This document shows, piece after piece, positions 13,727 to 60,758 of a DNA stretch of 64,000 nt; position 1 is the stretch's first letter, and the number at the start of each line of letters is the position of its first letter. The translations under genes and the position numbers were made by a program. The notes below the pieces were generated by a model. The model searched no databases. It was not told the origin of the DNA and saw only the letters and a program-made list of their open reading frames with translations. The stretch comes from Mugilogobius chulae (Eukaryota). Location of the stretch: positions 574,968-638,967 of the forward strand of contig CM100124.1 of the NCBI GenBank assembly GCA_046056395.1, in the 5' to 3' direction.

Positions 13727-13875
13727 GAGTTCGGGGTCTCGCGAGGTCGGCAGCAGAGCCTGTGGCTGCAGCAGGACTGTAGTTAACCAGAGCTAATGTG
13801 AGTCACCCACCGTAGCAAGACCGGTCCGGTGGCTGCACCGGAGTTAGACTGGAGGCAGTGTGAGCCCGGGGTGAG
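13727..13875 (+). repeat. interspersed repeat (family with core GGTGGCTGCACCGGAGTTGGACTGGAGGCAGTGTGAGCCCGGGGT) abutting the acceptor of the next exon
   Basis: copies at 13727-13875 (+), 22548-22700 (reverse complement) and 23175-23240 (+). Confidence 0.7.
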
Positions 13876-13903
13876 TCTGAAGCTGATGTTCTGTTGTGTT
13901 CAG

Positions 13904-14005
13904 GACCTGACGGCCATCGGAGTCACTAAACCTGGACATCGCAAGAAGATTTCTCTGGAGATCACTCAGCTCAACATCGCAGAGTGGCTCCCGGAGTTTA
14001 TCCCG
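13904..14005 (+). CDS. caskin1: Caskin exon, second half of SAM domain 1
   Basis: cag|GAC CTG...CCG|gtaaga; translates to [34 protein letters not shown] (Caskin1 reads [34 protein letters not shown]); phase 0/0. Confidence 0.85.
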
Positions 14006-15500
14006 GTAAGAAACGCAAACATACATGTAAACAACAACAAACAAACATCGCAGAGTGGCTCCCGGAGTTTATCCCGGTAAGAACGCAACGTACATGTAAA
14101 CAACAACAAACAAACATCGCAGAGTGGCTCCCGGAGTTTATCCCGGTAAGAAACGCAAACATACATGTAAACAACAACAAACAAACATCGCAGAGTGGCT
14201 CCCGGAGTTTATCCCGGTAAGAAACGCAAACATACATGTAAACAACAACAAACAAACATCGCAGAGTGGCTCCCGGAGTTTATCCCGGTAAGAAACGCAA
14301 CATACATGTAAACAACAACAAACAAACATCGCAGAGTGGCTCCCGGAGTTTATCCCGGTAAGAAACTCAAACATACATGTAAACAACAACAAACAAACAT
14401 CGCAGAGTGGCTCCCGGAGTTTATCCCGGTAAGAAACTCAAACATACATGTAAACAACAACAAACAAACATCGCAGAGTGGCTCCCGGAGTTTATCCCGG
14501 TAAGAAACGCAAACATACATGTAAACAACAACAAACAAACATCGCAGAGTGGCTCCCGGAGTTTATCCCGGTAAGAAACGCAACATACACGTAAACGACA
14601 ACAAACAAACATCGCAGAGTGGCTCCCGGAGTTTGTCCCGGTAAGAAACACAAATATCTACTGTAAACAACAACAAACAAACATCGCAGAGTGGCTCCCG
14701 GAGTTTATCCCGGTAAGAAACACAAACATACACGTAAACAACAACAAACAAACATCGCAGAGTGGCTCCCGGAGTTTATCCCGGTAAGAAACGCAAACGT
14801 ACATGTAAACAACAACAAACAAACATCGAGATGCTCCCGGAGTTATCCGGTAAGAAAAAACAACATGTAAACAAAACAAACAAACATCGAGAGTGGCTCC
14901 CGGAGTTTATCCCGGTAAGAAACGCAAACATACATGTAAACAACAACAAACAAACATCGCAGAGTGGCTCCCGGAGTTTATCCCGGTAAGAAACGCAAAC
15001 ATACATGTAAACAACAACAAACAAACATCGCAGAGTGGCTCCCGGAGTTTATCCCGGTAAGAAACGCAAACATACATGTAAACAACAACAAACAAACATC
15101 GCAGAGTGGCTCCCGGAGTTTATCCCGGTAAGAAACGCAAACATGATACACAGTCCGGAGTTTATCCGGTAAGAAACCAAATACATGTAAACAACAACAA
15201 ACAAACATCGCAGAGTGGCTCCCGGAGTTTATCCCGGTAAGAAACGCAAAACATGTAAACAACAACAAACAAACATCGCAGAGTGGCTCCGAGTTTATCC
15301 GGTAAGAAACGCAAAATACATGTAAACAACAACAAACAAACATCGCAGAGTGGCTCCCGGAGTTTATTCCGGTAAGAGAAACGCAAACATAACATGTAAA
15401 CAAAAAAAACAACACAACAAACATCGCAGAGTGGCTCCCGGAGTTTATTCCGGTAAGAGACGCAAATATGTACTGTAAACAACAACAAACAAACAAACAA
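13966..15500 (+). repeat. 71-bp minisatellite, about 21 copies, each unit = last 32 nt of the SAM1 exon + GT donor + ~39 nt of intron
   Basis: unit atcgcagagtggctcccggagtttatcccg|gtaagaaacgcaaacatacatgtaaacaacaacaaacaaac repeated head-to-tail from the genuine exon end. Confidence 0.9.
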
Positions 15501-15769
15501 ACACACAACAAACAAACATCACAGACCGGCTCTAGTCCGTAGTAGTATTTTATTAACTGAAAGAAGAATTAAAACCCCGTATCATTCCGGCGTCCCTTCG
15601 AAGAGACGTCCCACTTTTTCTTTATAAATTCCATTTTGTTGAGTGTCTGAAAAAAACTATGAAGCACCTGTAAAGGTTAAATATAAAAATCCCATTGTAT
15701 CCCTTTTATTTAGAGTAAAATCAGCCTCTGGGACGATCCAGACTCAGATTTCTACTGGAAACCTCCAAA

Positions 15770-16225
15770 TAAAAAAAAGTCCTCAAAAATTCAAACATTT
15801 TAACAGGACTTTTGTATTGGCTCCACCTAGATTCTTTTGAGTAATTTTAGGTCCTAAAACACATTTTTACCTCAATCACCCTCAGCTTTTACAGAGGAAT
15901 GGTCAAAACCCCAAATCTGCCAAATCTAGAGTCATTTATGTCTAAACAGCAGCTTTACCAATCCTTTTAATTACCAAAACATTTAGGTGGAATTTAGATT
16001 GTGATTTTCTTTTGTTTGGAGAAAGTTCTCACTTCTGATGAGCCTGTTGGACATCAGAAGAAAAAACTACAGATACAGCTTTAAAAAGACCCCAGACATT
16101 TGCCTGAGCTCCAAAGGATCAGGAACAGTTTTAGTTTGAATTTTTACAGATTTTAGTCAGACGTGTGAGGGGAAAAGGACGGAATGAGAAGCATGAAGAT
16201 AGAGTTTAAATCACATGTAATAGTT
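15770..16225. repeat. ~450-bp interspersed repeat, copy 1 (copy 2 at 51690-52140)
   Basis: long near-identical alignment including cacttctgatgagcctgttggacatcagaag (an internal palindrome). Confidence 0.8.
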
Positions 16226-17199
16226 TATGTTCTGTAAAAATTACAGCTGGGCTGCGATTTTTTTTGTAATCGTGATGAATCGCATGCTTGAGCTGCGATT
16301 CCGATTAATCGCATTTTACACAGAAAGTTCAATAAATTGCTTTTTTAACCCTTTTTTCTCCAAAATGTAATTTTTTAAAAAAAGTATATTTAAGGTTCTT
16401 CATTATGTAGAGTGTACAATTCTGCACATTCTGTGGTATTTTGGTTTGATGCATAATTTTAGCACCAAATTATACATTATACATAACTCAGTTTTACATA
16501 ATAATATGAGCAGTGTGAATCAGTTTGGATATTTTTAAGATCAGAATGTTATTTCATCTTGTTTAGGCTGAACAGAAATGTACAAATCCAAGCTAATGGT
16601 TCTACAACATTTTCAGTCCAGTTCAGGTAAAATTTGGGCGAAACTTTACAGAAATTTTAGAGACATGGACAGTTCCCACAGGAGTAGAAACTCAGACCAC
16701 GTCGTAATTATTACAATTTACATGAGGCCGTGCGAATAGTTCTTTTGTTTGACAGAAATGTAATATTTCTAACTTTTCAGTATTTTTTCTGGTGGGAAAA
16801 AAGTCCCTGGCCTGGTCCTCTCGGGTCAAAATAACTTGGGAAGACAACAGATTCTATAATTTTTCAAAAGTTGACATCTGGGACCAACCATGAAAGTTTC
16901 ATGTTGGATCAGAGAATTGTATTTTATTGACAAAACACCCCAAAGATAACACAATAATCCATTCTGACAATAAAATAAAAAATAAGCTTCAGTTGAATTG
17001 CTGTTGTATTTATTTCTCAAATGTTCATCGTCAGGTTTGAAGCCCGAGACATGTTGTAGATCTGCTTTTGTCGTTTGGGGTTTGATGCTGTGGAACCTTT
17101 GGCTGTTTCCTCCTGTTGACCTTTGTGTTCTGTAAATACATCCAAACAATCTTCACTGGACGCTGTTTTGAAAGCAAAGATTTGCTGCTAAACAAGCGC

Positions 17200-17960
17200 G
17201 ATTGCAACTTGTGTCACCACCAAACTTCTGCACAAATATAAGTATTCATGCCTGAGTTTGGTCACATATCTACATGTCCGTTTCTTTATAGACATGAGTC
17301 CAGTGGTTTATGGCTGAACATGTCTGGATATATGTCTCACCCGGGTGTTTAAGGGCGTATAGGAATCTGCTGCTGTCGTGTTCAAGCCTCTCTCTCTCTG
17401 CGTCTGCAGATAGAGTCGACAATCAAGGCTCACTGTCGGCGCTGCTTGCATCAGAAGCTCCTCTATGGTCTTTCTTAGCTCCTCTATAACTCAAAAGTTG
17501 TCGATGGCAGCTTGCGTCGCCCAAACTCCTGCACAAATATAAGTATTCATGCCTGAGTTTGGTCACACATCTATATGTCCGTATCTTTACAGACATGAGT
17601 CCAGCGGTTTAAGGCTGAACATGTCTGGATGTGTTTCTCACCCGGATGTTTAAGTCTGGCAGGTGTTGGAAGCCATGCCAGGAAACAAACGATGTCAATA
17701 CCGGTTCCTTAGCAAGCTTGTGTCGCCACCAAACTCTTGCACAAATATAAATATTCATGCCTGAGTTTGGTCACATATCTATATCTTTATAGACATGAGC
17801 TTGGGTTTCATCAGCGGTTTAAGGCTGAAGATGTTCGGATGTATTTCTTACCCGGTTGTTTAAGGGGCGTACAGGTCAGGCAGGTGTTGTTGCTAAAAAC
17901 ATTGGGGCCAAGCCAGGAAACAAACGATGTTAAAGCCGGTTCCTTAGCGATCTTGTGGAA
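17200..17960. repeat. ~250-300-bp tandem repeat, 3 copies, at the 3' flank of the nested antisense gene
   Basis: 'caccaaacttctgcacaaatataagtattcatgcctgagtttggtcacatatctacatgtccg...' recurs at ~17215, ~17520, ~17725; a sub-segment ctctctctctgcgtctgcagatagagtcgacaatc... reappears inside the coding region at ~18040. Confidence 0.8.
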
Positions 17961-17964
17961 CTCC

Positions 17965-20900
17965 TTAATAGAAAAATTGGATGTTGCTGTGGTGGTCCAG
18001 GCCAAGCTGAACCAGGCGGCTGTTTCCAATCTGTCTCTCTCTCTCTTGGCGTCTGCGGATGGAGTCGACGATCGGGTCCACGCTGACGGAGCTGTTTCCA
18101 TCAGAAGCTATAGCCGTCCGGTCCTCTACACGATCACCACCAGTCGGCTCAGGGATGACAGATCTCGAATACTTCTCCTGCAGCTGGGTCATCAACGCCT
18201 TGGCTGCGTCCCTCTCCTCGCCGATCCTCCGTATCTCTTCGTTGGCTTCGACACACTCCTCTGTCTTCTTCACCAGCTCATCCCTGACTCTCTCAAACGT
18301 CCGTCTGCTCTTCATAAGCTTGTCTTCGGCTTGGTCGCAGTTCTCTCTGTACCTCTTCATCTCTCCCAGGGCATTGTCGCGCTCCTCTATGGCTTCGACG
18401 CACTCCTGTCTCTTCTTTATCAGCTCATCCATGTTTTGGTCGAACTTCTTTATGAGCGAGTTTTTGGTTTGTCCCACTCTTCTTTCATTCTTCTTTGCTC
18501 GTGCTTAGCGTCTTCGCACTCCTTTCTGTACTTCCTCTTCTCAACCCAGACACTTTCGTAATCCTGTCTGCACTTTCTCAGCTCTTCTCTAGTTTAATCA
18601 CATTCCTCTCTACTCTCTCTCAGCTCCTCTCTGATTGTCCTCCTCTGCGGTGTTTTTGTCCGCTCTAAGCCTTCACCTTTCAGACAGCTCTTGTTGTCCT
18701 TTCGCTCCGTTTCTAGCTCTTCCTTAAGCCAGTCTCGCTCACGATTACAAGCGAAGACTTGTTACTTTCCGTTTCCTCAACTTCTGAACTTTTCTTCTGT
18801 CGACTCTTGATCTCGTCCATTTCCCTTTCGTGACCCTCCTTCAGCCGCTTCAAGTCGTTCTCCAGCTTCTTCTCCAGTCCCTGACGTACTTCCTTAAACT
18901 CGGCATATTTACCTTTCATGACGGCTTTCATCTCCTCTTCCATCTCTCGTTTGGTGGAGCTTAAGCGTTCTTCTTTGGCTTTCTGGAGCTGTTCTTTTTC
19001 CTCGTCGAGCTCAGCCTGGATTTGTTCCAATTGTTGCTTGTGCATTGCTTTTAGTTCTTTTGCATTTTCCTCCTGCTGCTTTTGAAGTTTAGCTTCGAGT
19101 CTGGTATTTTCTTTCCCGATTTCATCCTCCAGATTCTCGCGGAGCTGCTCTAGTTTAGCCTCAGAGTCCTCTTTAAGCTTTTCTTCTTCCTCTCTCAACT
19201 TTGCAGACAGCGACTGACGTAGAGTCTGGAGTTGCATATCATTCTCAGCCTTTAGAAGCTTCTCTTGAGCTTTGAGACTTTCTCCAAGTCGCTCTAATTG
19301 TAGCTCGGATTCCTGCTTAAGTCTTTCTTCTTCCTGCGCTCTTTTGCTAAAATCGATTCACGCAAACGTTCTAGTTTCTCTTCAGTCTCTGCCTTCAGAC
19401 GATCCTTCTCCTCTTTGATCAACCTCTCTCGCCTCAGCCGATCAGTTCTAAGCTCTTCTTCAAGTCGCTCTAATCTGTCTTCCTCCTCTTTTCTCTTTTC
19501 TCTCATTCTCTCGTCAGTCTCAGCCTTTAGACGCTCCCCCTCCTTCCAGACCATCTCCTCCTGCACAATCCGATCGATTTGGATGGCTTCCCGTAAGTCC
19601 CGTAGTTCTTTCTCAGATTCCCGCTTCAGTCTTTCTTCCTCCTCTTTTCTCTTTGACAAAAACGACTGACGCATAGTTTCCACTCTCTTGTCAGTCTCAG
19701 CCTTTAGACGTTCCTCCTCCTTCCAGATCATCTCCTCTTGCACAATCCGATCGATTTGGATGGCTTCCCGTAAGTCCTGCAGTTCTTTCTCAGATTCCCG
19801 CTTCAGTCTTTCTTCTTCCTCTCTTCTCTTCGCTGACAGTGACCGGCGCAGTTCGCTCAGTCGTTCTTCGCTTTCAGCCTTCAGCCTCTCTTCTTCGTCT
19901 CTCTTCAGTGTTAGTTCTTCTGTCACTTCCAAACTCAAATCAGGCTGGAGCTTTTGAGACGAGGGCTGGTCAAACTTGTCGACCTGGGTGATCTGGGAGA
20001 AAGATCTTTGTCTTCAGTCATGCTTACTGCTTCCTCGTTGAAGTCATTGTCATAATTTGATGGACTGTCATCACAGAAAGAGTCTAAGTCTACGTCTGTG
20101 TTGTCGTCATCTTCTTCAATCTCGGGCTTATCAGACAAGTCTGATGAAGCTCGGGAAAGACTGAGCGAACGAACGGAAGAATGGTCTATTTCCGCTTCTA
20201 AAACCTCACTCACCTGCCCTTCCTTTTCAAAAACGTCATTGTCGTAGCTTAACGGTGGTGTTGGATCATCAAAGACTGAATTTAGCGATTTTAAGTCCAG
20301 ATCTGTGTCTTCTTCCAGTGAACTACGATCTCCATTATCTGCAGGTAGTTTCAAATCATCCCCCCAAAAGTCATCTTCTGTAGCTTTTCCGTCTCCTCCC
20401 TCATCATCTTCTTTAAGAACCTCGAGTGAAGCTCGTCATAAAAGTCTGATAAATCTTCAGAAAAACTGGACGATCTGGGAGAAAGATCCTCATCCTCTTC
20501 ATTGCCTTCTTCAGAGAACTTCTCGTCTCTTGCCTTTAACCTGATCTGTTCCTCCTCATCCAGCTCCTCGTTGTAATCAAAGTCTGAATTTAGCGATTTA
20601 GGTCCAGATCTGTGGCTGCGTTATTAGGAGCCATGTCTTCTTCCAGCGAACCAAGATCTCCAATATCTAAGTTTATATTTTCTGCTGCTTTGAGAGAAGC
20701 AGCAGTGAGAAAGAGCGTGTCTTTCTTCGTCTTTGTTCTTGCGGTTGAACGTTGTTCCTGCGCTGCTTCACGCCTGGCCTTACACCTCTGCAGTAGACGG
20801 TCAATGGAGTCTTCTTCCTCGTCGTCTGTTTCTGTCTCTGAAGGCAGGGCTGTGTTATTCTCTTCGGTGTCTGAGTGCAAGTCGCGTTCGGTTGAATATT

Positions 20901-21406
20901 GTTCCTGCGCTGCTTCACGCCTGGCTTTAAACCTGGCTTTAAACCTCTGCATTAGAAGGTCAAGGGAGTCTTCTTCCTCGTCGTCCGTTTCTATGTCCGA
21001 AGGCAGGGCTGTGTTCATCTCTTCGGTGTCTGAGTGCAAGTCGCGTTCTGTCGTTTCCATTTTCGCTGCTCCTTGGTTTTTCACATTCAGCTCTTCGTCG
21101 CTCGAAAGCACATCCAGGAGCTTTCTTCTCGCTCGTCTCTGTGAAATCTGAATCATTACCGACCTCTGTGGGAAAGAACGTGTCTTTCTTCGTCTTTGTT
21201 CTCGCGGTTGTGAGTTGTTCCTGCGCTGCTCTGCGCCTGGCTTCACACCTCTGCACTAGACGTTCAAAGGAGTCTTCTTCCTCGTCGTCCGTTTCGATCT
21301 CCGAAGGCAGGGCTGTGTTCATCTCTTCGGTGTCTGAGTTCAAGTTCAGCTGCAGGTCTCGTTCTTGCGTTTCCATTTTCAGTGCTGTTTTGGTTTTCGT
21401 ATTCAT
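17965..21406 (-). CDS. intronless antisense gene nested in a caskin intron: acidic N-terminal repeats plus long E/K/R-rich coiled-coil; open frame broken in at least 5 places as assembled
   Basis: consecutive minus-strand ORFs 20960-21406, 20590-21246, 19935-20354, 19294-19938, 18713-19237 and 17965-18477 abut or overlap in different frames; three ~150-aa N-terminal repeats (METxERDLHSDTEEMNTALPSxIETDDEEEDS..RCKARREAAQEQ), then EERLKAE/REEEERLKRESEKEL heptad-like repeats. Confidence 0.6.
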
Positions 21407-21600
21407 CTCCTCGTCGCTCGAAGCACGTACGGGAGTTTGTTCTCGCTCATCTTTGTGAAATCTGATCTATCTGTGTCGTACAGCGTCAGATAAACTGTTT
21501 TTACGTGGGAGCTCTGTGTCTGTGTGGCGTTCGGTTCGCTTCTCGTCGAGTTGTGACAGAATCGCTGACGTCACAGCCTAGAAAAGCCTAGAAAGGTTGT
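21407..21600 (-). promoter_or_regulatory. putative promoter/5' UTR of the nested gene, containing a palindromic CRE TGACGTCA
   Basis: tgacgtca at ~21567-21574, ~160 bp upstream (on the minus strand) of the ATG at 21406; an upstream in-frame ATG is followed quickly by a stop. Confidence 0.3.
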
Positions 21601-22295
21601 TGCTATGGTAACGTATTAGTTTAGTTTAGTTTATTTAATGAAACAGGGACAATGCACAATATACATTAACCTAAAATAGGAGAGATGCTTTGTATCAGGT
21701 TATAGCACAAGTCGTCCCTGGCAGGTTGATTTAACAGCAGATAAAATAATAATAATTATAAATTTAATTTATACTATAGTGCTGTTCTAGACACTCAAGA
21801 CGCTTTACAGTCAAAGGCAGTTGGGTCATTCTACAGAAACGGTGCCTTTTGTGTCCTTTAGTGGAAAATGAAAATATACAAAAATCATCAAAGTGTGTGC
21901 TTTGAATTTTAAATGTTTATTTAGAGTGTTCAATTTCAAAATCCAGATATTTCAAAAACTGCTCCTTGTTTTAGAGACACAGCCGGGAGAGCTGTTGATG
22001 TTGTTGAGGAGCATGGTACTAAAATGGCCGGTACATCTTAAAACTTCTGCCACATCATTCACACTCCTACAGGTCATTCATTCTCTCAGCACTTCACACA
22101 GTCGCTTTAAAATACACACTCACATCAGTCCGTGTAAAGAAAACTTAGTATTTTATGTTTTGCCAGAATGTGACAGTGATGAAATGAACGGCCTTTCCTG
22201 TCATGAATCCATAAAGAACTTTTATACAATGATTCAAATGGTCTCAGGGCAGATTTACAGGCCTGGGACCAACTTGTGATGCACTAAAAGAAACG

Positions 22296-23800
22296 TGGGA
22301 TAGGGCTGCACGATATTGACAACAAATCTAATTGCGATTTTTTTGTTTGATATTGCGATTTCGATTCGATATTCGATATTTATTAACATGTGTACATGGT
22401 TTTTTTTCTGTTGAGCAGGCCATTTTGCAACAATATTAAAAATAAACTGCCCTACTAATGAAAAGTTACATACATACATTTTAGATTGATTGATTGGATG
22501 TTGTGCTTGATAATTCAGTTGGCCTGTATAAACAGTAACTAAAGTAACTTACCCCAGGCTCACACTGCCTCCAGTCCAACTCCGGTGCAGCCACCGGACC
22601 GGTCTGCTACGGTGGGTGACTCACATTAGCTACGGTGGTCTACAGTCCTGCTGCAGCCACAGGCTCTGCTGCCGACCTCGCCAGACCCCGAACTCACGGA
22701 GGTTCACGTTCAACGTCAGAGAATAATACATCCATGGGGAGAATACGCGATCGCTGAGCACTTTTTTCTCTCTCTCTCTTTCGCTGAGCACAAATGTAAA
22801 CAAAGAACACGCGCCGAGTTTTGAGCTTGTTTCACGTCAGTTGATTTTCTGTTTGATTTTTCGCCCACAATGGGTAAGTACGGAGGTTTATTTACATTCT
22901 ATGTGTTACATAATCGTGTAAATGTCCTATTTTTACGTATTTTGTATTATTAGTGGTAACGTAATGATTTTATTTTGAAAACTACCGGATTTACTTCACC
23001 CGCGCTCGCTTGGTTTCCTGTTATCGTGTTTTGTTTTCACAACTTCATCAAAAAGGGCTCCGGCGTCCGGCCAAAATTTGAAACAAACGAAACGGATTCG
23101 GAGCGCCGGATTGGCCGTACCGGAGACACCGGACTGGACTGTAGCTGTGTGAGCCACTCTCGGACTTTTCAAGTTAAGTAAAGACTCCGGTGGCTGCATC
23201 GGAGTTGGACTGGATGCAGTGTGAGCCCGGGGTTAGACTATTATTTAACCTGTGACAGAAATATACATCTACACCAGCAGATGGCGCCAACGTCCCCTGT
23301 AGAGCTCTGGCGTGTTATACTGGAAAAAAAACAAAAAAGATTGCTAAAACTCCAATAACAATGTTTATCTCTTAAGGACTGAGCAAACCTGCGTGACTCT
23401 GCGGTGTTTACGGACTTATATCAGTCATGCAGCTTTTATTCACTTGGATTTTATGTTTGTGAAGAAAACAAACTGGATTTGCCTCGGAAAATATTGATGC
23501 TTTGCCTGTTCAGGTAAGCGGCTAAAGCTAGCAGCATCTGCAAAATGTGACTCTTTATTTATGAGTGATTTTATTGAATACGCACTAGAACAGTCATGAA
23601 AGTCATTTTGTGCAGTTTAAAGGCCTGTTGCTGTGGTGCTGCCCTGTGTTCACTTTCGTGGTGCGCTGTGTCCAATAAAAATAAAAAAGGAGGCTAAAGC
23701 GTAAGAAAAGGAGGAATATCGAGGCTTTTGCAATTAGGTAATCACAGTTGTCAGTATTGATTCGATATCAATATATCGTGCAGCACTAATGTGGGACAAT
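22296..23800. mobile_element. DNA-transposon relic with TIR GGGCTGCACGATAT(A)TTGA
   Basis: 22298 gggctgcacgatattgacaa matches the reverse complement of 23765-23795 ttgattcgatatcaatatatcgtgcagcactaat; carries family-X repeat copies internally. Confidence 0.55.
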
Positions 23801-23939
23801 AATTTCATTCAGATACGTAAGTCCCGAAGTCAAAGATACTCAAAAGAGTTTCTACTGAAAAAGAATGTCCAGTTAGTCATGTTGTGCTAAAAATGTAAAT
23901 CTACGAAGCTTAAACCTGGTGTCCACAACACAAGTTTAT

Positions 23940-24345
23940 TCTACTGGCAGGAGGACTTGGGGCGTGGCTTAGCTCTCTTGTATTCTATTGGCAGGAGGAC
24001 TTGGGGCGTGGCTCAGCTCTCTTGTATTCTATTGGCAGGAGGACTGGGGGCGTGGCTTAGCTCTGTTTACTCTATTGGCAGGAGGACTTGGGGGCGTGGC
24101 TCAGCTCTGTTTATCTGTATTAACAGGAGGACTTGGGGGCGTGGCTCAGCTCTCTTGTATTCTATTAACAGGAGGACTTGGGGCGTGGCTCAGCTCTCTT
24201 GTTTTCTATTAACAGGAGGACTTGGGGCGTGGCTCAGCTCTCTTGTTTCTATTACAGGAGGACTTGGGGCGTGCTCAGCTCTCTTGTATTCTATTGGCAG
24301 GAGGACTTGGGGGCGTGGCTTAGCTCTCTTGTATTCTATTAACAG
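23940..24345 (+). repeat. 43-45-bp tandem repeat, about 10 copies, each unit = polypyrimidine tract + AG acceptor + first ~24 nt of the SAM2 exon
   Basis: unit ctcttgtattctattggcag|GAGGACTTGGGGCGTGGCTCAGCT; the final copy runs into the genuine exon (GAGGACTTGGGGGCGTGGCTCAGCTCCATAGGCCTGCTGCAG, translating to [14 protein letters not shown]). Confidence 0.85.
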
Positions 24346-24484
24346 GAGGACTTGGGGGCGTGGCTCAGCTCCATAGGCCTGCTGCAGTATCAGAGGAGAC
24401 TTTGTGAAAACGGATACGACTCGATGGAGATCGTCAAAGACCTGAGCTGGGAGGATCTGCAGGAGATCGGCATCACCAAACTGG
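24346..24484 (+). CDS. caskin1: Caskin exon, SAM domain 2 (major part)
   Basis: aacag|GAG GAC...AAA CTG G|gtcagg; translates to [47 protein letters not shown] (Caskin1 reads [47 protein letters not shown]); phase 0 start matches the 14005 donor. Confidence 0.85.
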
Positions 24485-24739
24485 GTCAGGACTAAATACT
24501 TTACTCTGTGTATTTGTATCGTCTTACTCTACTTTACTTTGTGTATTTGTACTGTGTTGTAGCTCTAGATCGGCAGTGGCGCTTCCATTGAATCTAATGG
24601 AAGAAGCCTAAAATGTAGTTTCTGTGGTTTAGCATGGCATTGAATTAGGCTGTGAAAAGTCATGAGGCCAAAAAGTTAAACTAATTAAAATCTTTATGTT
24701 GATGTAACTTAACAATGTGAGTCAAAGATTTAAATCCTA

Positions 24740-25262
24740 GATTTTTAAGTGAAATGAAAGAGAGAGAGAGAGGAGAGAAAGAGAGAGTGAGAGAGAGAGA
24801 GAAAGAATAGAGAGAGAGTGAAGAGAGATAAGAGAAAGTAGAGAAAGAGAGAGGGAGAAGTGAGAGAAAGAAAGAGTGAAGAGAGAGGAGAAGAAAGAAG
24901 AGAGAGTGAAGAGAGAGAAAGTGAAAAGAGAGAGAGAAAGAGTGAAAAGAGAGAAAGAGGAGAGAGAAAGGAGAAGAGAAAGAAAGAGAGAGAAAGAGGA
25001 AGAGAGAGAAGAGAAAGAAAGTGAAAAGAGAGAGAAAAAAGAGTGAAAAGAGAAGAGAGAGAAGAGGAAGAGAGAAAGAAGAGAGAAAGAGTGAAGAGAG
25101 AAGAAAGAAAGAGTGAAAAAGAGAGAGAGAAGAGAAAGAGAGAGAGAGAAAAAGAGTGAAAAGAGAGAGAAAGGAGAGAGAGAGAGAGAGAGAGAGAAAA
25201 GAAAAATGAGAGAGAGGAGAGTGAAGAGAGAAGAGAGAGAGAGAAAGGGGATGGAGAGGAAA
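24740..25262 (+). repeat. GA-rich purine tract (~520 bp)
   Basis: gagagagagaggagagaaagagagagtgagag... low complexity. Confidence 0.9.
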
Positions 25263-25955: not shown

Positions 25956-27834
25956 GGTAAGAGACATATTAACCATCAGAAACAGTTTAAACAGCTCATA
26001 CTCCAGCAGCAGGTAACAAACGTATAAAACAGTTTAAACAGATACAGTCACTGTAGATTAGAACTGGGCACAGAAAAACGTTTCCTATTTGAAACCGACA
26101 GAAAACGTTAGAGAAATACTGGAGCTGAAAACATAATGTCGTTTCTGTGCCATTTTTTGGATCCTTGACTTTAAATCTCTGCGTCAATAAGCAGACACAG
26201 AAACACCACATTGCCACATGGCGCTCTATAGAGGGATTTTTTGTTTCTCAACACGGCCGTTGCACACACTCAACCTACAGAAAGAGCCGCCGCTCACAGA
26301 CACAAACAGTGAAACAAGTGTAAAAAGCTCTGTTGTCAGTAACTACAAGAGTTTATCTGTGAGAAAACTAAAGTTCTGCTGCTAAATCAACATTTGTGAA
26401 TGAAACTCCACCTTCGACCCTTAAAAGTGACATTCAGTCTGTCAGACCGGTTCAGACCTGATCCAAACAGCTGAGAGCAGACTGTGGCCTTGTTTTATTC
26501 AAACTAGTTTCCCCAGCTAAGCAGATGGACAGCGGCTCTTTCTGTATAACACATGCGCAGTAGAGGAAAGTGACGTCGACTGAAAATACGTGTGTTGTAA
26601 ATATAGTTTGACAAAAGTAACATTATTAAAGAGAAACTAAACTCAGAATCCACTTTTTTTCACTGTCAGACTGTGTATATGTGGTCAAAATTGAATTATC
26701 TACTGTTTCCAGGCCTTTTTTGGACATTTTTGTGCAAACTCGCTCATTTTGGAGTTATGTGTGCAAAACCACGACTGTACTGCCGATGGCAAACTCTGTC
26801 ACTGCATTTTCAGTACCCGCTGACGTCACAGTGTATTGACGAGGCAGACGAGCCGCCCAGATGATTTATCTAAACTCCTCCCTCTGACAACGCTGCGTAT
26901 TGACATCAGCCTCATGTGGCTCAGTTTGTTGAGCGAGTGGTGCGTTGTGCCACCACAAGTTCAAAGATGCGCTGGTTCGAAACTCGTGCCTGTGTTTTTT
27001 CATTTTTAGAAAATACTCACATAACAGGCTCATGTGCTTATGTAACGGCCTAAAGAAAAGGTTTCATACGTATGATTTGCAAAGCAAAAATAAAAAATCT
27101 TTACGTGTAAGCAAAGACTTGGTTCTGTTGCTGTACAGCTCTCTCAAATCTCACGTCAGGACCAGGACCACTGTTCATATTTGGTGCTGTCAATCAATGA
27201 CTGTTCACATCCACTGGGCGTCTCTTAAAAGTCCTCCGGGCATCTCCCACTTTTGCGAGTCTGTTTGAGGTTCAGTTGTGGGCGGAGTTAGTCTCTGAAA
27301 GCGTGTTTAGCCTCACTTTAAAGGCTGAAAAATTATTTTAGTCTTATATTTAACAGAACCGTTAAAGAACCAGTCTCGAAAACCTAGTACTGTTAAAGTA
27401 TCGGAAAAAAAATCTAAGGGTAACCAGCCCTAGTATTCTCCATATTCAGTTTTTGCAAATCTTCAAAATAATATTCACAACATGATCTATAAATTGATAA
27501 ATTGCATAGTTTCAGCTCAGAAGTAAATCCCTAAAAAAAACACAACTCATGACTCTTAAAGTTGTTGTAAGGAAGCAGAGTTTGCAGCTCTGATCACAAA
27601 CACTGGTGGTGGTTCCTCAAGGCTGCGTCTTGGAGCCACAGATGTTTTAAAGTAAATAACATGTTCCATATGTTAAAGCAGAAAATACTGTGGATTTTTT
27701 TATTAGACCTTAGAGATGAACCTGTGTTTCCAGACTCTGTAAATGTGGAGCTTTAGACCATGTTGTGTTTTATATTTAAATAACGAGACAGTTCTATAAC
27801 TCCAGTCACATGATTAAACCTTGTGTTTCTTCAG

Positions 27835-28547
27835 GACGGAGACTTGAGCGCTGAGATTCCCTGTGCTCTCTCTCGACCCGGAGAGTCTCTCAGTCTGAGT
27901 CTGTCCCACAGCGATGAGAGCCTGGCCGAGCGCTCCCGAGGGTCCGGACGCTCTCAGGACACGCCCCAGGACACGCCCCTGGACCCGCCCACAGACCTGC
28001 CCGAGTCCAGAGACCAGACCCGGACCAAACACGTCCCTCAAGGCACCGCCACGGTCTTCAAGTACCCGGCCATCCCAGCGAAGCCAAGAGTGTGTGGGTC
28101 TCCTCATGGCCCCGCCTCTTCTCCACGTGGTCCCGCCTCTTCTCCCCGTGGCCCCGCCTCCTCCCCCCGTGGCCCCGCCCTCCTGAAGCAGGCGCAGGTG
28201 TCCCGGGGCTCTCTGTCGGACGGAGAACAGGGCGAGGATGAGGAGGAGACGGTTCTTCCTCCATCCTACGCCACACTGAGCCGCCGCCGCTCGCAGAGAG
28301 GCGCTCCCGGAGGTGGCGAGGGGGAGCGCGTGGGGCGGAGCCAGTCCTTCGCCATCAGAGCGAGAAAGAAAGGCCCGCCCCTCCTCCACCCAAACGTCTC
28401 AGCTCCGTCAGCTCTCCGAGTGACGAGCAGAGCGACAGCAGTGTGTCCGACAGCCCGGGACGAGTACGGACCCTCGCCAAGGCCCTGGAGCCACGCCCAC
28501 AAGAGCCACGCCCTCAAGAGGCCTGTCCGCAAGAGCCACGCCCACAG
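27835..28547 (+). CDS. caskin1: Caskin exon, Pro/Ser-rich region (RSQSFAIRARKKGPP motif)
   Basis: cttcag|GAC GGA GAC; ORF 27823-28611 includes ...SPRGPASSPRGPASSPRGP...YATLSRRRSQRGAPGGGEGERVGRSQSFAIRARKKGPPLLHP (Caskin1 reads RVGRSHSVRAP...RSQSFAVRPRKKGPPPPPP); donor CACAG|gtacgc; the frame at the 3' end is inconsistent with the start, implying an indel. Confidence 0.75.
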
Positions 28548-28722
28548 GTACGCTCACACCTGCTTTAGCCACGCCCACAGGTACGCTCACACCTGCTTTA
28601 GTCCGGGTTAGATCTGGATTAGACCTGGTTTAGAACTTGTACTACGAAGCTAGATTGTGCTGTTGTTGTCTTTTCCGTTCAGTCTTTAATTCTGATTGGC
28701 TGTTCCTTGTGTCCAATCACAG

Positions 28723-29660
28723 GAGGGCTCTGCAGCTGGGAGGCGGGGCCAGAGCGCTGTGACGTCAGACTCGGAGTCGGAGGAGTTACGAGCTTTGGGC
28801 GGAGCTTCACAGAGCAGCTCCAGCGAGTGCATCCCATTCGCAGAGGAAGGAAATCTCACCATCAAACAGAGACCCAAAGCCCCGCCTCCTCCCGCGCCGA
28901 AGACGTCCTGGGACTGGACCAGGACCGGACCAGGGACCAGACCAAAGAGCAGCAGCAGACCACGCCGGAGTTTAACCTGAAGGAGTCGGACACGGTGAAG
29001 CGCAGGCACAAACCCAAAGACTCCGGCGACGGTTCTCCAGGCAGAAGTCCCCAGGAACCAGACAGCGCCACGTCCAGTCTGGAGGAGCTCAGGGCCTTTC
29101 CTCCGAGGCCGGCCCAGGACCTAGCGGCGTCCCCGGGGTCTGTGCTGAGAGCTGCTTCTCCGCTCAGGGCTGGTTCTCCGCTCAGGGCTGGCTCTCCGCT
29201 CCGGTTTGAGTCGTCCCTCAGACCTGGATCTCCGCTCAGACCTGCCCCGGATCGAGCCTCTTCTCCCGGTTCTCCGCTCCGGTTCGAGTCCTCCCTCAGA
29301 CCCGGTTCTCCGCTCAGACCTGCCCCGGACCGAGCCTCTTCTCCCGGTTCTCCGCTCCGGTTCGACTCCACCCTCAGACCTGGATCTCCGCTCAGAGTTG
29401 CCCAGGACAGAGCTGCGTCTCCAGGTTCTCCGCTCCGGTTCGACTCCACCCTCAGACCTGGTTCTCCGCTCAGAGCTGCCCAGGACAGAGCTGCGTCTCC
29501 GGGGTCTCTGCTGCGGCCGAGCCCCTCTTCAGACCCGGCTCTCCTGGTTCTCCCGGCTCTCTTGGTTCTCCCGGTTCTCCTGGTTCTCTGCACAGGCCTT
29601 GTCTCTCTCCCAAACCTGCCGTGGCGCCTAAACCTGTGCGCCAGAGTCTGCTCAGTCAAG
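28723..29660 (+). CDS. caskin1: Caskin exon, Pro-rich region with ESDTVKRR motif and a 20-aa SPLR coding tandem repeat; frame changes twice within the exon as assembled
   Basis: cacag|GAGGGCTCT; three successive frames read EGSAAGRRGQSAVTSDSESEELRALGG, then FNLKESDTVKRRHKPKD...(GSPLRFESSLRPGSPLRPAPDRASSP) x5, then SPKPAVAPKPVRQSLLSQ|gtcaga (Caskin1 reads ILTESDTVKRRPKAKE; PPVSPKPVLTQPVPK). Confidence 0.75.
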
Positions 29661-31212: not shown

Positions 31213-32665
31213 TGTGCAGCTCTAGGTTTAGTTTGCGCGGTGGCGTTATGTGTGAACGCACCGTCAGACTCTGGTGATGTGACCTGGTCCCAAACAGAGA
31301 CTTTAGGGCAAAGCAAACACTCAAGGCCAAGACTAGGACCAAGATTAGGACCAGTGAGTTTAGGAAATGATCACATGACCTCTGACAGAACTGATGCTCG
31401 GTCTAAACGTCTGATACTTTACTGATTTTTTACATCTATGATCGTCTCATTTGTGTTGCTTTGTAGCAATTGAGAAAAACAAAATGATGTCACGTGATTG
31501 ATCTTAAATAACATATTTATATTTTATTTATTTATTTATTTAGGAAAAAGGGGGAACAATGCATATTAATGAACATTCAAACAAATGTAAATATGCTAGA
31601 TTGTAGCAGAGGCTAATTCCATCTGCAGTCCCCTTTGGCAGGTTGATGTTAAAAGAATAAAACACAGACTATTTACAGTTGGACAAACACAAACAAGCAA
31701 GACCGGGGCAATGGAAACAGTAGACAAAAAGTTAACTTAGAGGGATAAGAAAGACAGTTTAACAGTATTGCACATGCTCCTCCTGCCCAGACCTCCAAGT
31801 CACACAAAACTATCCATATTGCACAAACGCCCATTGCACAGATCCCCATTACTCATTGCACCAGTTTCTATTGCACTATCCAACATTGCACAAAACCCTA
31901 TTGCACTACGTCATATTGCACTACGTCATATTGCACTACGTCATATTGCACAAACTCATATTGCACAACCATATTACACTGATCTTTTCAATCCAGGTTC
32001 TAGGGAGAAATAAAACACTTAAAGGGGCACTGTGTAAGAAAAACAAACAAACAAAGTGATTTCCACTTTTGAACACTAGAGGGAGCCTTTCACATGCATT
32101 TTGCCTATTAAGCATGATGCCATCTAGCGTCAATAATCCACATTCCTGCCGTAATAAAACATTTCAAATACGTATAAATGTATCACAGTTGATGTGGATT
32201 GGTTAACAGTGTCTCTGAAGTATTCATGTTGTAAAGAATAAATATGATTTAAATGTTTGTGGACTATATGTGATCATTAAAATTCCTCTCAATCTTACAC
32301 AGTACAGCCCCTTTAATGATCACATGCTTGTGTGTTTCTCAGCCATAGTTTCAGATGCTTCTTAAAGGCAGTGAAGCTTGTACTTTCCCTCACAGAAAGT
32401 GGGAGACTGTTCCAGAAGGTGACCCCCTGATATGACAGGACATTTTGAGTTCACATTATGAGTTCACAGTCGCCTCTGACAGTGGCTCGAGTAACTCGGG
32501 ATCCAGCTTCACTGACAGACTTTTGTTTAATAAAATCATTCAGTGGTGGAGGTGCCAAACCGTGTACCATTTTATAGATCAAACATGCAGCTTTAAATAA
32601 AATATTCACGGAACAGTCCAAAGAAAACACATTCTGACGTATAAAACTGTTGTTCTGCTCCTCAG

Positions 32666-32900
32666 GCTCCGGCCGCTCGTCTCCAGGTCTGTCTGTGTCC
32701 GTGCTCCAGAGCGTGGCCTTCTCCTCGCCCCCCCGCTGCCTAAGCCCCGCCCTCAGCCCCGCCCGCTCCCCCTCCCGCAGTCACATGACCTCTCCGGGGT
32801 CACATGACTCTGAGGTGCAGCTGCGACTGGATCAGACCAGTGTGAGTCTGGAGGCGGCTCTGCAGGACGTGGAGCGCAGCCTGGAGCGGCAAACGGACTG
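32666..32900 (+). CDS. caskin1: Caskin exon (penultimate)
   Basis: ctcag|GC TCC GGC translates to (G)SGRSSPGLSVSVLQSVAFSSPPRCLSPALSPARSPSRSHMTSPGSHDSEVQLRLDQTSVSLEAALQDVERSLERQTD; phase 1 start matches the 29660 donor (G|GC); donor GGACTG|gtaata; the end phase mismatches the last exon by 1 nt. Confidence 0.7.
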
Positions 32901-33300
32901 GTAATAACCGGTTATTCATGTTTATTAAGCTCTTATTCATGTGTAACAAGCCTGGAGCGGCAAACGGACTGGTAAGAACTGGTTATTCATGTTTATTAAG
33001 GTTTATTCATGTGTTACAAGCCTGGAGCGGCAAACGGACTGGTAAGAGCCTGTTATTCATGTTTATTAAGGTCTTATTCATGTGTAACAAGCCTGGAGCG
33101 ACAGACCGACAGGTAATAACCGGTTATTCATGTTTATTAAGCTCTTATTCATGTGTAACAAGCCTGGAGCGACAAACGGACTGGTAATAATCTGTTATTC
33201 ATGTTTATTAAGCTCTTATTCATGTGTAACAAGCCTGGAGCGGCAAACCGACTGGTAAGAGACCCTTATTCATGTGTTATTAAGGTCTTATTCATGTGTA
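32878..33300 (+). repeat. ~70-bp tandem repeat, 6 copies, unit = last 21 nt of the exon + GT donor + ~45 nt of intron
   Basis: cctggagcggcaaacggactg|gtaa(t/g)a(a/g)c.ggttattcatgtttattaag(c/g)tcttattcatgtgtaacaag recurs at ~32878, 32951, 33021, 33092, 33163, 33229. Confidence 0.9.
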
Positions 33301-33775
33301 AAAGTACTGGCACTATTTTATTTATTGAACCTTTATTTTACCAGGAGGTCCCTTGAGATAAAACTTGGACAGAACAATTCAGTGAAACATTTAAACCATG
33401 ATAAACATATATATAAAGAAAAGTAAAGTATCCAGCTCAAGAATGACATTTAAAAGTTTCAATGAAGACATTTTTAAGAAGAAACTTCAAAATAGTCAGT
33501 ACCAGAAGTTTTAAAGGTTTCTGAATGTTGTTTCAAACCCAGGGAGCTGCCGTTCAGCCCAGTTCAGTGTTAATCAACTTAAACAGAAGCTACTGTGAAG
33601 AACGAGAGTTATATCCAGTGTTCGCTGGAGTCAGGAGCTGCACATGTCTGAGGCAGTTTATCCATTATGGCTTTATATATAAAAATAAGCCAGTGCTGTT
33701 GTGTTCTGAGGCTCTAAGGCAGGAGACCAGAGCAGCTCACAGGGGTGGGTCCTGAACAGTGCGTTTGTAATAAAT

Positions 33776-34800
33776 AGGGATGTCAAGATTAGGTTTTTCA
33801 ATAATCGTGAATATTTTCCCCCACGGTAGGTTATTCGTGGAATTTTTACAACTCACAGTAAACCGCAAACACGTCTTTTACGTCTTCTGTGACGTGTGTG
33901 GGCAGCGCCAGCGGAGAACAGCGTGTGTGTCGTCAACTCACCGCTAAGGCTGCTGAAGTTAGTGCTTCAGGAGTTGTATCCATCCAAATAATCAAGTCAG
34001 AAGATGTTTAAAGATGACCAGGGCTTTGTGCGGCTGAAGAGTGTCCAATATGTAAAACGTGTCATTGAAAAGCTGCCGCTAAAAGTGCTAACACATCCAA
34101 CATGATCCAGCATCTTCGATACGATCGTCCCTCGCTGTTGGTCTAAGTAAAGGTAAAGAAACAACGTAAATCCTTTAAACGAAGCGCTCCAGAGAGAATC
34201 ACACAGCTCACGGCAAAAATAAACAGTATTTATGCTTCATTTGACATAAACTCTGATCTGAAAGTAAAACTAAAGCAGAGACGCTGCAGACGTCATGACG
34301 ACGCTGGAAAACAAAACGTGTGGATGACGTCACCTTCATGAGTCACGTGACAGATATCACACATAATATATTATTAGTTATTAGGGATGGGACGAGATCT
34401 CGCGGCACGAGATCTCGTCCCATCCCTATTAGTTATTAATGAATCTCTACTTGTAAGTATATTGAGAATATCAAAGCAATCATTAAAGAGACAATAATGT
34501 AAGAAAAAAAAAAATAGCTGATTAAAATTTTGTTTAAAACATAAAATTATTATATATTTTTTTCAAAGGGTAATTATTTAAATAATTGTATTTATTATTT
34601 TTATTCTAGGCTACATTATATTTATGAAATACAATCAGTGTATTGTCACTGTCAGCAAATCAAATACCAATAATTTAGATTTTAAAAATATATATGTGTT
34701 TATATTTTCTTTATGCCGATAACTGTGAATAATCTCAAAATCGTGATTTTTCCTTTTGCTATAATCGTGATTCTAAATTTGATATCGTGGCATCCCATAA
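33776..34800. mobile_element. DNA-transposon relic with TIR AGGGATG...; contains a perfect 45-nt palindrome at 34369-34413
   Basis: 33776 agggatgtcaagatta matches the reverse complement of 34783-34800 atcgtggcatcccat; internal agggatgggacgagatctcg-cggca-cgagatctcgtcccatccct. Confidence 0.5.
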
Positions 34801-35324
34801 GTCACTGTGATAAACTGTGTCCATGTTCAGGACTGAGGAAGCTGCGTTCAGATAAATAATGTGACTAATGTGGTATAAATGTGTAATAGTCTTGGAGGAA
34901 GAAAAACACAATGAGTTTGTTCTCTGGTTTATTTAGGTTTGCACTTCTGCAGAGCTGAACTTTACTCATGCGCACATGCAGCGCATGAATGTGCACGCTG
35001 AGTTAAAGCCGGCCGACTGTAGAGTCCAAATGTTTGTCGACTCAATTCTGAGATGAGTTCACGAGCGCTGAGTCGTGTAAATCAAGTAAGAATGTGGACA
35101 GTAGTTGTTTAAGTTAGAGAGTTTTTCTTTGGCCGATGTCGATGTGATTTTCCTATATTACTGTTAAAAGTGTCGCTGTGGTGAGATGGTAAAACCTAAA
35201 CTCTTCTTCCCCCAGGGACGTGTCTCTTTCACACAATGTAATGACGCTCAATTATGTTTTGGTCAAAGAAACATTTCATTTCCTAATTTTGACAAAAAAC
35301 AAACACGTAACGCAACAAAGTCAC

Positions 35325-36185
35325 AGAATAATGGTGCGTTCCAGGCAACTGGGAACTGGTATATGTCCCACCTCCCACTTGTAAAAATGCGCTGTAACGC
35401 CACTCGAACTGGTTAATCCCACTTGTGAACTGGGACCTGGTCGAGGAAGCCCCACTTCACATACGAGCTCAACAATAACCACAATACATTTATTTGAGGG
35501 GTTTAACTGATGCAAAAACAATGTAAACATTGATTACAGGTTATTTACCGTTACTTTTGTTTAGCCTAAGGGTTAGCATTAACCATAATGTTTACATACG
35601 AGTTGATTACGTTGGAACGCTCTGAAGTGGGAACTGGTATTTTTCAAGTGAGAAATGTCCCAGTTCCCAGTTGCCTGGAACACAGCGTAAGAATAAAACT
35701 TAAAGGTTGTCTGGAGGATTTTTCAAATCCAACAGCTGTTTGCTGTTTTTCAAATGATGCACATGTGTTTCTCCTCTTCACTGTAACTGGACCAATGAGT
35801 TACTTATGCTGCGTTCCAGGCAACTGGGAACTGGGACATTTCTCACTTGAAAAATACCAGTTCCCACTTCAGAGCGTTCCAACGTAATCAACTCATATGT
35901 AAACATTATGGCTAATGCTAACCTTTAGGCTAAACAAAAGTAACGGCAAATAACCTGTAATCAATGTTTACATTGTTTTTGCGTCAGTTAAACCCCTCAA
36001 ATAAATGTATTGTGGTTATTGTTGAACTCGTATGTGAAGTGGGGCTTCCTCGACCAGGTTCCCAGTTCACAAGTGGGATTAACCAGTTCGAGTGGCGTTA
36101 CAGCGCATTTTTACAAGTGGGAGGTGGACATATACCAGTTCCCAGTTGCCTGGAACGCACCATTAGGAACACTGAGGGTTTGCTT
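35325..36185. mobile_element. foldback element: two ~380-bp arms in inverted orientation around a ~100-bp spacer
   Basis: 35330-35700 is the reverse complement of 35805-36180 (for example gcgttccaggcaactgggaactggtatatgtcccacctcccacttgtaaaaatgcgctgtaacgccactcgaactgg matches the reverse complement of ccagttcgagtggcgttacagcgcatttttacaagtgggaggtggacatataccagttcccagttgcctggaacgc). Confidence 0.85.
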
Positions 36186-36436
36186 GACAGGTTAACAGGT
36201 CAACGTTTTACTGGCCTCATCATGTCCACAGTTTATATATTTTTATAATGTTGTTTTTTATTTAGCATCAGTACAAGACTGTTACAAATCTATGCAACTG
36301 TTTTTGACCAAGACTGACAACAAACTATTTTTGAATATCCTCCATACAACCTTTAAAGAAATGTTCATGATAAGATCAAAACTGCAGAACTCTGACAACT
36401 GTCCAATCCTAAACTGTCTGTGTTTGTGTTTATCAG

Positions 36437-36532
36437 CTCGGCCTGCGCCGTGAAGTCCGCCGGACCATCCTGGACGACATCGGGACCATGTTCGACGACC
36501 TCGCCGACCAGCTGGACGCCATGTTGGAGTGA
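36437..36532 (+). CDS. caskin1: Caskin terminal exon, conserved C-terminal tail, TGA stop at 36530-36532
   Basis: tatcag|CTC GGC CTG CGC CGT GAA GTC CGC CGG ACC ATC CTG GAC GAC ATC GGG ACC ATG TTC GAC GAC CTC GCC GAC CAG CTG GAC GCC ATG TTG GAG TGA translates to [31 protein letters not shown] (Caskin1 ends [22 protein letters not shown]). Confidence 0.85.
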   Translation, partial: [31 protein letters not shown]

Positions 36533-57489: not shown

Positions 57490-57950
57490 ATGTGCACTGA
57501 CTTCAACCTGGTTTAGACCTGGTTTAGGCCTGGTTTAGGCCTGGTTTAGTCCTGGTTTAGACCTGGTTTAGACCTGGTTTAGTCCTGTTATAGTCCTGGT
57601 TTAGTCCTGGTTTAGACCTGGTTTAGTCCTGGTTATAGTCCTGGTTTAGACCTGGTTTAGTCCTGGTTTAGACCTGATTATAGTCCTGGTTTAGACCTGG
57701 TTTAGTCCTGGTTTAGACCTGGTTTAGTCCTGGTTTAGACCTGGTTTAGTCCTGGTTTAGTCCTGGTTTAGTCCTGGTTTAGTCCTGGTTTAGACCTGGT
57801 TTAGACCTGGTTTAGTCCTGGTTTAGTCCTGGTTTAGTCCTGGTTTAGTCCTGGTTTAGTCCTGGTTTAGACCTGGTTTAGTCCTGGTTTAGACCTGGTT
57901 TAGACCTGATTATAGTCCTGGTTTAGACCTGGTTTTAGTCCTGATTTTAG
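57490..57950. repeat. 11-bp satellite (CCTGGTTTAGA/CCTGGTTTAGT)n, about 40 copies
   Basis: direct reading; the same monomer is dispersed at 28598-28640, in mvp intron 1 (60760-61620, 62290-62480) and at 63360-63410. Confidence 0.9.
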
Positions 57951-60594: not shown

Positions 60595-60758
60595 ATGTCT
60601 AAGAAGTCAGGTCCTCGAGTCGTGGACATGGATCTCCCTGTGGACGCCTCCATCATCAGGATTCCTCCTCATCACTACATCCACGTCTGGACCAGAACAC
60701 CAACATCGCCCGCGTGGAGACCGGACCCGCTGACCTACATCAGACAGGACAATGAGAG
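60595..60758 (+). CDS. mvp: major vault protein exon 1 (start codon at 60595)
   Basis: ATG TCT AAG AAG... translates to [54 protein letters not shown](R); human MVP reads [39 protein letters not shown], so the middle ([17 protein letters not shown]) is in the wrong frame as assembled; exons 2-3 confirm the gene; donor GAG AG|gtgagt. Confidence 0.8.

Follow-up and report, generated by a model that had tools for sequence, protein, structure and literature searches.

A probable lineage-specific minisatellite reiterates the 5' splice site of the last caskin intron in Mugilogobius chulae

The last intron of the caskin gene in the stretch of Mugilogobius chulae DNA analysed here (64 kb, hereafter the window) opens with six head-to-tail copies of a 71-bp unit, in which the tail of the preceding coding exon, a GT splice donor and the start of the intron are reiterated together. 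The array displays every sequence-level hallmark of an exon-intron-boundary minisatellite, and it appears, as judged from sequence, to be a lineage-specific minisatellite of the F7-IVS7 or "mirage" kind, with a first monomer spanning the 5' splice site. As a complete explanation, we consider it highly probable that a junction-spanning minisatellite of slippage or unequal-exchange origin is at hand, with copies 2-6 being spliced out and the whole tolerated as a near-neutral by-product. The splice-donor-repeat architecture has already been described, and the caskin array is a further case; unusual is instead the density of junction-containing arrays in the window, along with a weak authentic donor that faces stronger decoys.

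Results

The proposal that the gene encodes caskin, put forward in the initial annotation, is corroborated by Pfam matches to Caskin1-CID, SAM, Caskin-Pro-rich and Caskin-tail on the + strand (Table 1). The exons were mapped via Pfam and two teleost contigs, Ameca splendens JAHRIP010038082.1 (loci L001 and L003) and a teleost genomic Logan contig (L002); protein searches gave only a 275-aa caskin fragment, and recovered no near-identical proteins for the caskin queries. The Caskin-tail match comprises profile positions 1-25 only, ending …ERSLERQT, and the rest of the domain (…AVKSAG·TILDDIGTMFDDLADQLDAMLE, followed by the stop) is encoded by the last exon. Homologs P0001-P0012 align across the penultimate exon, which is also recovered by tblastn to Ameca (L001 788-1048) and to L002 (2044-2337).

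Several other aspects of the locus were recorded. The order and orientation of caskin and the neighbouring MVP gene are conserved with A. splendens (36533-60570 vs L003 1247-7560), with ~24 kb between caskin stop and MVP start codon here vs ~6.3 kb in Ameca, and no long ORFs with Pfam matches were detected in the part of the caskin-MVP interval that was tested. A coiled-coil, Glu/Lys-rich gene on the - strand (17965-21406), for which no significant Pfam match was obtained, is nested in the 10.3-kb caskin intron and harbors an in-frame tandem repeat of 177 nt (59 codons) at 19507-19830. Impure low-complexity tracts of TC/AG type are present in caskin introns at 7795-9915 (2.1 kb) and 24758-25247 (0.5 kb).

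Table 1. Positions in the window of caskin features, of the copies of the target array and of the long-period tandem arrays
Feature	Positions	Strand	Remarks
Caskin1-CID	4231-4428	+	Pfam
SAM	11824-11973, 13802-13999, 24343-24492	+	Pfam
Caskin-Pro-rich	within 27823-28611	+	Pfam
Caskin-tail	within 32641-32901	+	Pfam
Penultimate caskin coding exon	32666-32900	+	…GSGRSSPGLSVSVLQSVAF…QLRLDQTSVSLEAALQDVERSLERQTD; phase 2 end; acceptor ctcctcag/GCTCC
Last caskin intron	32901-36436	+	3536 nt
Last caskin coding exon	36437-36532	+	…AVKSAG·TILDDIGTMFDDLADQLDAMLE; stop 36530-36532
Copy 1	32878-32948	+	exon tail 32878-32900, donor CTG/GTAATA (GT at 32901), first 48 nt of intron
Copy 2	32949-33018	+	70 nt; pseudo-donor CTG/GTAAGA at 32972; exon-derived part same as copy 1
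Copy 3	33019-33089	+	pseudo-donor CTG/GTAAGA at 33042; exon-derived part same as copy 1
Copy 4	33090-33160	+	pseudo-donor CAG/GTAATA at 33113; 4 exon-derived substitutions, intron-derived part as copy 1
Copy 5	33161-33231	+	pseudo-donor CTG/GTAATA at 33184
Copy 6	33232-33310	+	most diverged; pseudo-donor CTG/GTAAGA at 33255, then degenerate seventh-unit start
Array, 164-bp unit, 2.8 copies	2412-2865		whole putative 49-nt exon with its two splice sites; degenerate in copies 2 and 3
Array, 71 bp, ~21 copies	13973-15495		caskin SAM1 exon tail, GTAAGA and 38 nt of intron
Array, 44 bp, 10 copies	23937-24371		intron tail, AG, first ~24 nt of caskin SAM2 exon; last copy authentic
Array, 33 bp, 2 copies	28534-28601		CACAG/GTACGC
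Array, 71 bp, 6 copies	32878-33301		target caskin array
Array, nested 122/194/71 bp	60681-61614		tail of first MVP coding exon, …YIRQDNER/GTGAGA; at least 10 GTGAGA donors
Array, 59 bp, 7 copies	62548-62960		intron tail, AG, first ~24 nt of next MVP exon; last copy authentic
Remaining long-period array, 78 nt	29193		in-frame coding repeat
Remaining long-period array, 177 nt	19507		in-frame coding repeat

The initial annotation had proposed six copies of exon tail, GT donor and intron, and these are borne out by TRF, which reports a period of 71, 6.0 copies, 90% matches, 1% indels and a score of 683 at 32878-33301, as well as by shuffling. A 27-mer over the exon tail and donor, AGCCTGGAGCGGCAAACGGACTGGTAA, occurs five times at up to three mismatches against zero expected (100 shuffles), copy 4, with four changes in its exon-derived part, being the one outside this count, and an intron-derived 37-mer occurs four times, likewise against zero expected. 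Neither oligomer has an occurrence outside the array within the 64-kb window. The array occupies the first 401 nt of the intron, and each unit joins the 23 nt that end the penultimate coding exon to a GTAAKA donor and ~48 nt (47-49 nt) of intron, reading AGCCTGGAGCGGCAAACGGACTG/GTAAKA and then ~42 further, TTATTCATGT-rich bases. Thus, the unit make-up first suggested holds in kind, with the lengths adjusted: the tail is 23 nt (AG and the 21 nt quoted) rather than 21 nt, and the intronic part 47-49 nt rather than 45 nt. The unit indeed starts within the coding sequence (…SLERQTD), as anticipated, and the exon end at 32900 equals the orthologous intron position of two teleosts. Similarly, the gtaata and gtaaga donors noted at the outset are recovered, with the GT kept in all six copies, as GTAATA in copies 1, 4 and 5 and as GTAAGA in copies 2, 3 and 6.

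Pairs of units are 83-96% identical, and the divergence of 4-17% consists chiefly of substitutions, although single-nucleotide indels of the assembly (see below) mean that exact unit lengths and some differences between copies may be noise; such noise affects neither the pattern of substitutions nor the reality of the arrays. Two subtypes can be discerned, GTAATA…AAGCTC (copies 1, 4 and 5) vs GTAAGA…AAGGT(C) (copies 2, 3 and 6), which are interspersed along the array in the order A-B-B-A-A-B. Within the intron-derived part a 21-nt sub-repeat (GTAATAAccggTTATTCATGT / TTATTAAgctcTTATTCATGT) is found, which is older than the 71-bp array. The sole inverted repeat of the array is a perfect 14-nt palindrome, AATAACCGGTTATT, at 32903-32916 and 33115-33128, corresponding to donor positions +3 to +16 and present in copies 1 and 4 only; in the remaining copies, no part of the unit varies more than this segment. 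Near 33310 the array closes on its right with the first ~9 nt of a seventh unit in degenerate form (AAGTACTGG), with the repeat member at 33277-33310 being 88% in register. The microhomology previously suggested at the unit boundaries, ACTGGTAA, sits mid-unit instead, and the identity that keeps the register at the true array edges amounts to no more than 2-4 nt (AG / CTGG), blurred by the degenerate last unit.

The intron itself is located at the same place in Ameca and L002, likewise in phase 2 in Ameca (GAGGG/GTGAAT…cag/CAGG), and the orthologous last introns, ~85 nt in A. splendens and ~110 nt in L002, contain no repeat. As the position is common to two teleosts, in which the intron is short and repeat-free, the array is derived, the intron old and copy 1 the authentic one. 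The start of the Ameca intron (GTGAATATTCATCG) retains a similarity to the unit's TTATTCATGT core. The Rogers model, in which tandem duplication of an exon segment creates an intron, was considered and rejected, because the intron position is shared with the two teleosts and the phase with Ameca.

Only copy 1 adjoins the unique exon body, and hence only the GT at 32901 can yield the conserved C-terminus. Indeed, splicing in silico from this GT to 36437 gives …ERQTD-C-SACAVKSAG, matching the homologs (…TVKSAGTILDDIG), while donors 2-6 in silico place TGG-TAA-TAA, a tryptophan and two stops, in frame right after the true exon end. The donor of copy 1, CTG/GTAATA, matches U1 at 6/9 positions vs 7/9 for the CTG/GTAAGA pseudo-donors of copies 2, 3 and 6, and since these better-consensus sites are situated 71-354 nt 3' of the weaker donor, some mis-splicing is plausible. 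From the sequence we infer that the donor of copy 1 is the one chosen, and the most upstream of like donors would likely win, by analogy with F7. Under the 50-55-nt rule, a stop that far upstream of the last exon junction triggers nonsense-mediated decay; the pseudo-donor stops lie 71-354 nt upstream of it, and decay should therefore remove such transcripts.

Other functional readings of the reiterated junction were discarded. Alternative 5' splice sites that give protein isoforms are contradicted by the in-frame stops behind all downstream donors, and an in-frame cassette exon could keep the frame only as a hypothetical 21-nt AG…GT micro-exon with a poor acceptor. For a structured RNA element there is no Rfam match in the window, and the folding (z = 0.24) is no better than that of shuffles. 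A dispersed repeat, transposon or introner does not agree with a unit that is confined to the array and of which 23 nt are host coding sequence. Most likely, the array has no protein-coding role. As an independent check on the arrays, ORFs translated across four of them were compared with a collection of 5.8 billion proteins, with zero matches; a Pfam search of ORFs in the surrounding introns was empty.

We then surveyed the other arrays of the window (Table 1), counting TRF rows with a primary period of at least 30 and excluding those at 24758, 31885 and 45430 (primary periods of 2, 15 and 16 nt). All nine long-period arrays are exon-linked, and seven of them, five in caskin and two in MVP, have a unit that includes a splice junction. 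With arrays placed at random, 0.36-1.44 junction-containing ones are expected for 30-120 junctions (P = 5e-9 to 7e-5, thus at most 7e-5 even at 120 junctions). The array originally placed at 13966-15500 had been likened to the target, and the likeness stands: at 13973-15495 it too combines exon tail, donor and intron start at a period of 71. In all seven arrays the authentic copy adjoins the exon body, being the last one in the two acceptor arrays, and in the nested MVP donor array, the short unit of which measures 71-72 bp, copy 1 alone is joined to the ATG. Two introns, caskin 14007-24353 and MVP 60759-62941, carry arrays at both ends. The orthologous MVP intron of Ameca is 81 nt and without repeat, and 11 kb of the Ameca locus contain one trivial tandem repeat.

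Further observations concern individual arrays. At 2412-2865, the putative exon (cag/ACCGACGACGGCTAC…AACGCAG/gtaac) has two deletions in copy 2, and an in-frame TAG as well as a GC donor in copy 3; no Pfam match was found for it. The periods of five of the seven junction-containing arrays (164, 71, 44, 71 and 59) are not divisible by three, and the coding repeats of the caskin Pro-rich region (28099-28179, 28488-28546 and 29193-29588) have periods that all are (21, 15, 78, 18 and 9 nt). Two GT…AG intervals, 25958-27834 (1877 nt) and 28548-28722 (175 nt, phase 0), split what in L002 is one continuous exon of 564 codons, and are on sequence grounds candidate lineage-specific intron gains; the latter has a perfectly duplicated donor (33 bp twice, 28534-28601) after coding 15-nt repeats (EPRPQ four times). 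An 11-mer family, TTAGACCTGGT / AGACCTGACTT, is nearly all on the + strand, with 35 matches to TTAGACCTG there, of which just one has a counterpart on the other strand. It is found at 28619 in the shorter candidate intron, in a 40-copy array upstream of MVP (57507-57953) and at 60775-62382, occurring throughout MVP intron 1, where it makes up the intron-derived part of the MVP donor units.

The excess of junction-containing arrays is not predicted by purely random slippage, and may reflect mutational bias or selection. The array may have been made by a process that targets splice junctions or exon edges, in place of random slippage simply tolerated by selection, a reading that we hold as possible yet somewhat doubtful. 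Such a process could involve hotspots of recombination or repair, located at the GC-rich exons of an AT-rich genome, or DNA damage linked to transcription or splicing, and would also be the engine that expands the ancestrally tiny introns of the species. Congruent with this are the exon linkage of all nine arrays and the junctions in seven, the introns with arrays at both ends, the repeat-free orthologous Ameca introns of 81-85 nt, and the period of 71-72 in three donor arrays that lack sequence homology. A shared mobile element as the source of these three 71-bp units was dismissed, with no homology beyond GTRAGA detected by eye. Against targeting, the count comes from one 64-kb window with exons assigned from homology in this analysis, and two circumstances by themselves raise the expected proportion: with ancestral introns of ~80 nt, duplications of 50-70 bp in or near an intron often include a junction, from which part of the excess may follow, and duplications within exons survive only in frame. 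Taken further, the teleost genome may form splice-junction "mirages" far above chance, at about one quarter of the caskin and MVP junctions of the window, donors and acceptors alike, implying exon-edge-targeted duplication that would have expanded introns of ~80 nt to kilobases and may create introns, such as the two that split the L002 exon, one of them with its duplicated donor; we advance this tentatively, and with more doubt than belief.

It is improbable that selection maintains the array as a cis-regulatory element, in which repeated U1 sites tune the weak donor or shield the long intron from premature cleavage, or in which the units serve as in-frame 21-nt cassette micro-exons (AG/CCTGGAGCGGCAAACGGACTG/GT, encoding C-L-E-R-Q-T-D). 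The authentic donor is indeed weak, the AG-to-GT interval of each unit is 21 nt, stop-free and phase 2-keeping, and the splice consensus and exon-derived parts are less variable among pseudo-copies than the intron-derived parts. However, the difference in the target array is non-significant (6/115 exon-derived vs 20/245 intron-derived, Fisher P = 0.39), and the lower variation of splice motifs on pooling the other arrays is confounded by indel noise. Moreover, two teleosts with an intact caskin tail do without the array, so that caskin function does not depend on it. A micro-exon would have to use a poor acceptor, an AAG whose pyrimidine tract is weak, and the 50 nt from donor to next AG would be very short as a vertebrate intron. 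The F7 repeat, as far as described in its source, is also without an autonomous regulatory element (PMC1557585).

Finally, conserved exons of the window contain frame-breaking single-nucleotide indels. The last caskin exon is without 1 nt at ~36461 relative to two teleosts (gc-cgg here, gcaggg there; site 36455-36470), just before the conserved ILDDIG…LDAMLE C-terminus, and the large Pro-rich exon changes frame near 25870, 28300 (~28290-28380) and 28900 (~28880-28960). Compared with its pseudo-copies and with Ameca, copy 1 of the first MVP coding exon shows indels of -1 and +1 (60688/60730), garbling 16 conserved residues that are intact in pseudo-copies 2 and 3 and in Ameca. These indels look like long-read assembly noise rather than pseudogenisation, although they could be real. 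Together with clusters of 1-nt deletions in some copies of the 13973-15495 array, they speak for an assembly artefact, one junction over-expanded into six copies by a noisy long-read assembler, an option we judge highly improbable: such duplication would give identical or randomly noisy copies, while the divergence, mostly by substitution and with two interspersed subtypes, is the pattern of a real minisatellite, and seven independent arrays follow one logic, with the authentic copy always beside the exon body, at exon-intron junctions that are meaningless to an assembler.

Discussion

Human minisatellites with a first monomer across an exon-intron boundary are known from F7, IFI6, CBS, LMNB2 and PDGF (PMC1557585). 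In F7 IVS7, a 37-bp unit is present in 5-9 copies (Borensztajn et al. 2006, PMC1557585), a copy number similar to the six of the caskin array, and the most upstream donor is used exclusively, even against downstream consensus values of up to 91 (PMC1557585). The F7 unit, however, includes only 4 exonic nt, whereas the 71-bp caskin unit includes 23. In F7, moreover, pseudo-sites and authentic site do not differ in sequence, while three caskin pseudo-sites are closer to the consensus than their authentic counterpart. For F7, experiments have shown both which donor is chosen and that the length is polymorphic, while the caskin array is known from the sequence of one assembled haplotype. The remaining human cases, IFI6 (6-16) intron 2 with 25 pseudo-sites, CBS IVS13 with 15-20 repeats, LMNB2 with 10-15 copies of 100 bp and PDGF intron 4 with 16-18 copies of 81 bp (PMC1557585), resemble caskin in repeating the donor within the intron that follows it; with units of up to 81-100 bp and 10-25 copies, they are comparable with the 13973-15495 array. 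Splicing at the first two pseudo-sites is constitutive in IFI6 and CBS, while use of a caskin pseudo-site would lead to an immediate in-frame stop.

The amphioxus "mirages" are repeats at 5' and 3' boundaries that leave splicing undisturbed, with units of 10-160 bp (81-100% identical in BflGb6), and have been put forward as a route of intron gain (PMC3087553, PMC3902484). Genes named in these sources are Adh3, the globins BflGb6/9, TnC and PGBD5 (PMC3087553, PMC3902484, citing Canestro et al. 2002). Several mirages occur per genome with normal splicing, and all seven arrays of the window fit the mirage description. In the searchable literature mirages are described only in cephalochordates, whereas the caskin array is of a teleost, and differences in length between haplotypes as well as somatic instability are documented for them, while a single assembled haplotype represents the caskin array. 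In the full-text literature searched there was no report of teleost junction arrays, only the human single-gene cases and the amphioxus mirages. The Rogers model, in which an intron is gained when an AGGT-containing exon segment is duplicated in tandem (PMC3265369, PMC4974935), similarly involves tandem duplication that takes in splice-site sequence; there, however, the new intron forms between duplicated exonic copies, while the caskin intron pre-exists and is only lengthened.

In our preferred explanation, a junction-spanning minisatellite tolerated by the gene, the process would have started with tandem duplication of a 71-bp segment comprising 23 nt of exon, the donor and ~48 nt of an ancestrally short intron. 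The array would next have grown to six copies through replication slippage and/or unequal exchange, and the copies would later have diverged by 4-17% into two interspersed variants, with copies 2-6 presumably leaving with the intron as pseudo-donors. The array is most likely near-neutral, a by-product of the very active formation of minisatellites around the exons of this genome.

On its own, the array is one more splice donor reiterated within its own intron, a known curiosity, with the caskin case being special for an authentic site weaker than its decoys. Six near-identical donors nevertheless invite wrong gene models and false RNA-seq junctions. If the density of the window holds genome-wide, this species would offer natural experiments by the hundred on the spliceosome's choice among identical neighbours, as well as a view of the growth of short introns, and possibly of intron birth, in a vertebrate. 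Should exon-edge-targeted duplication prove true, vertebrates would have their first equivalent of the amphioxus mirages, and reiterated splice sites from across the genome would form a natural library.
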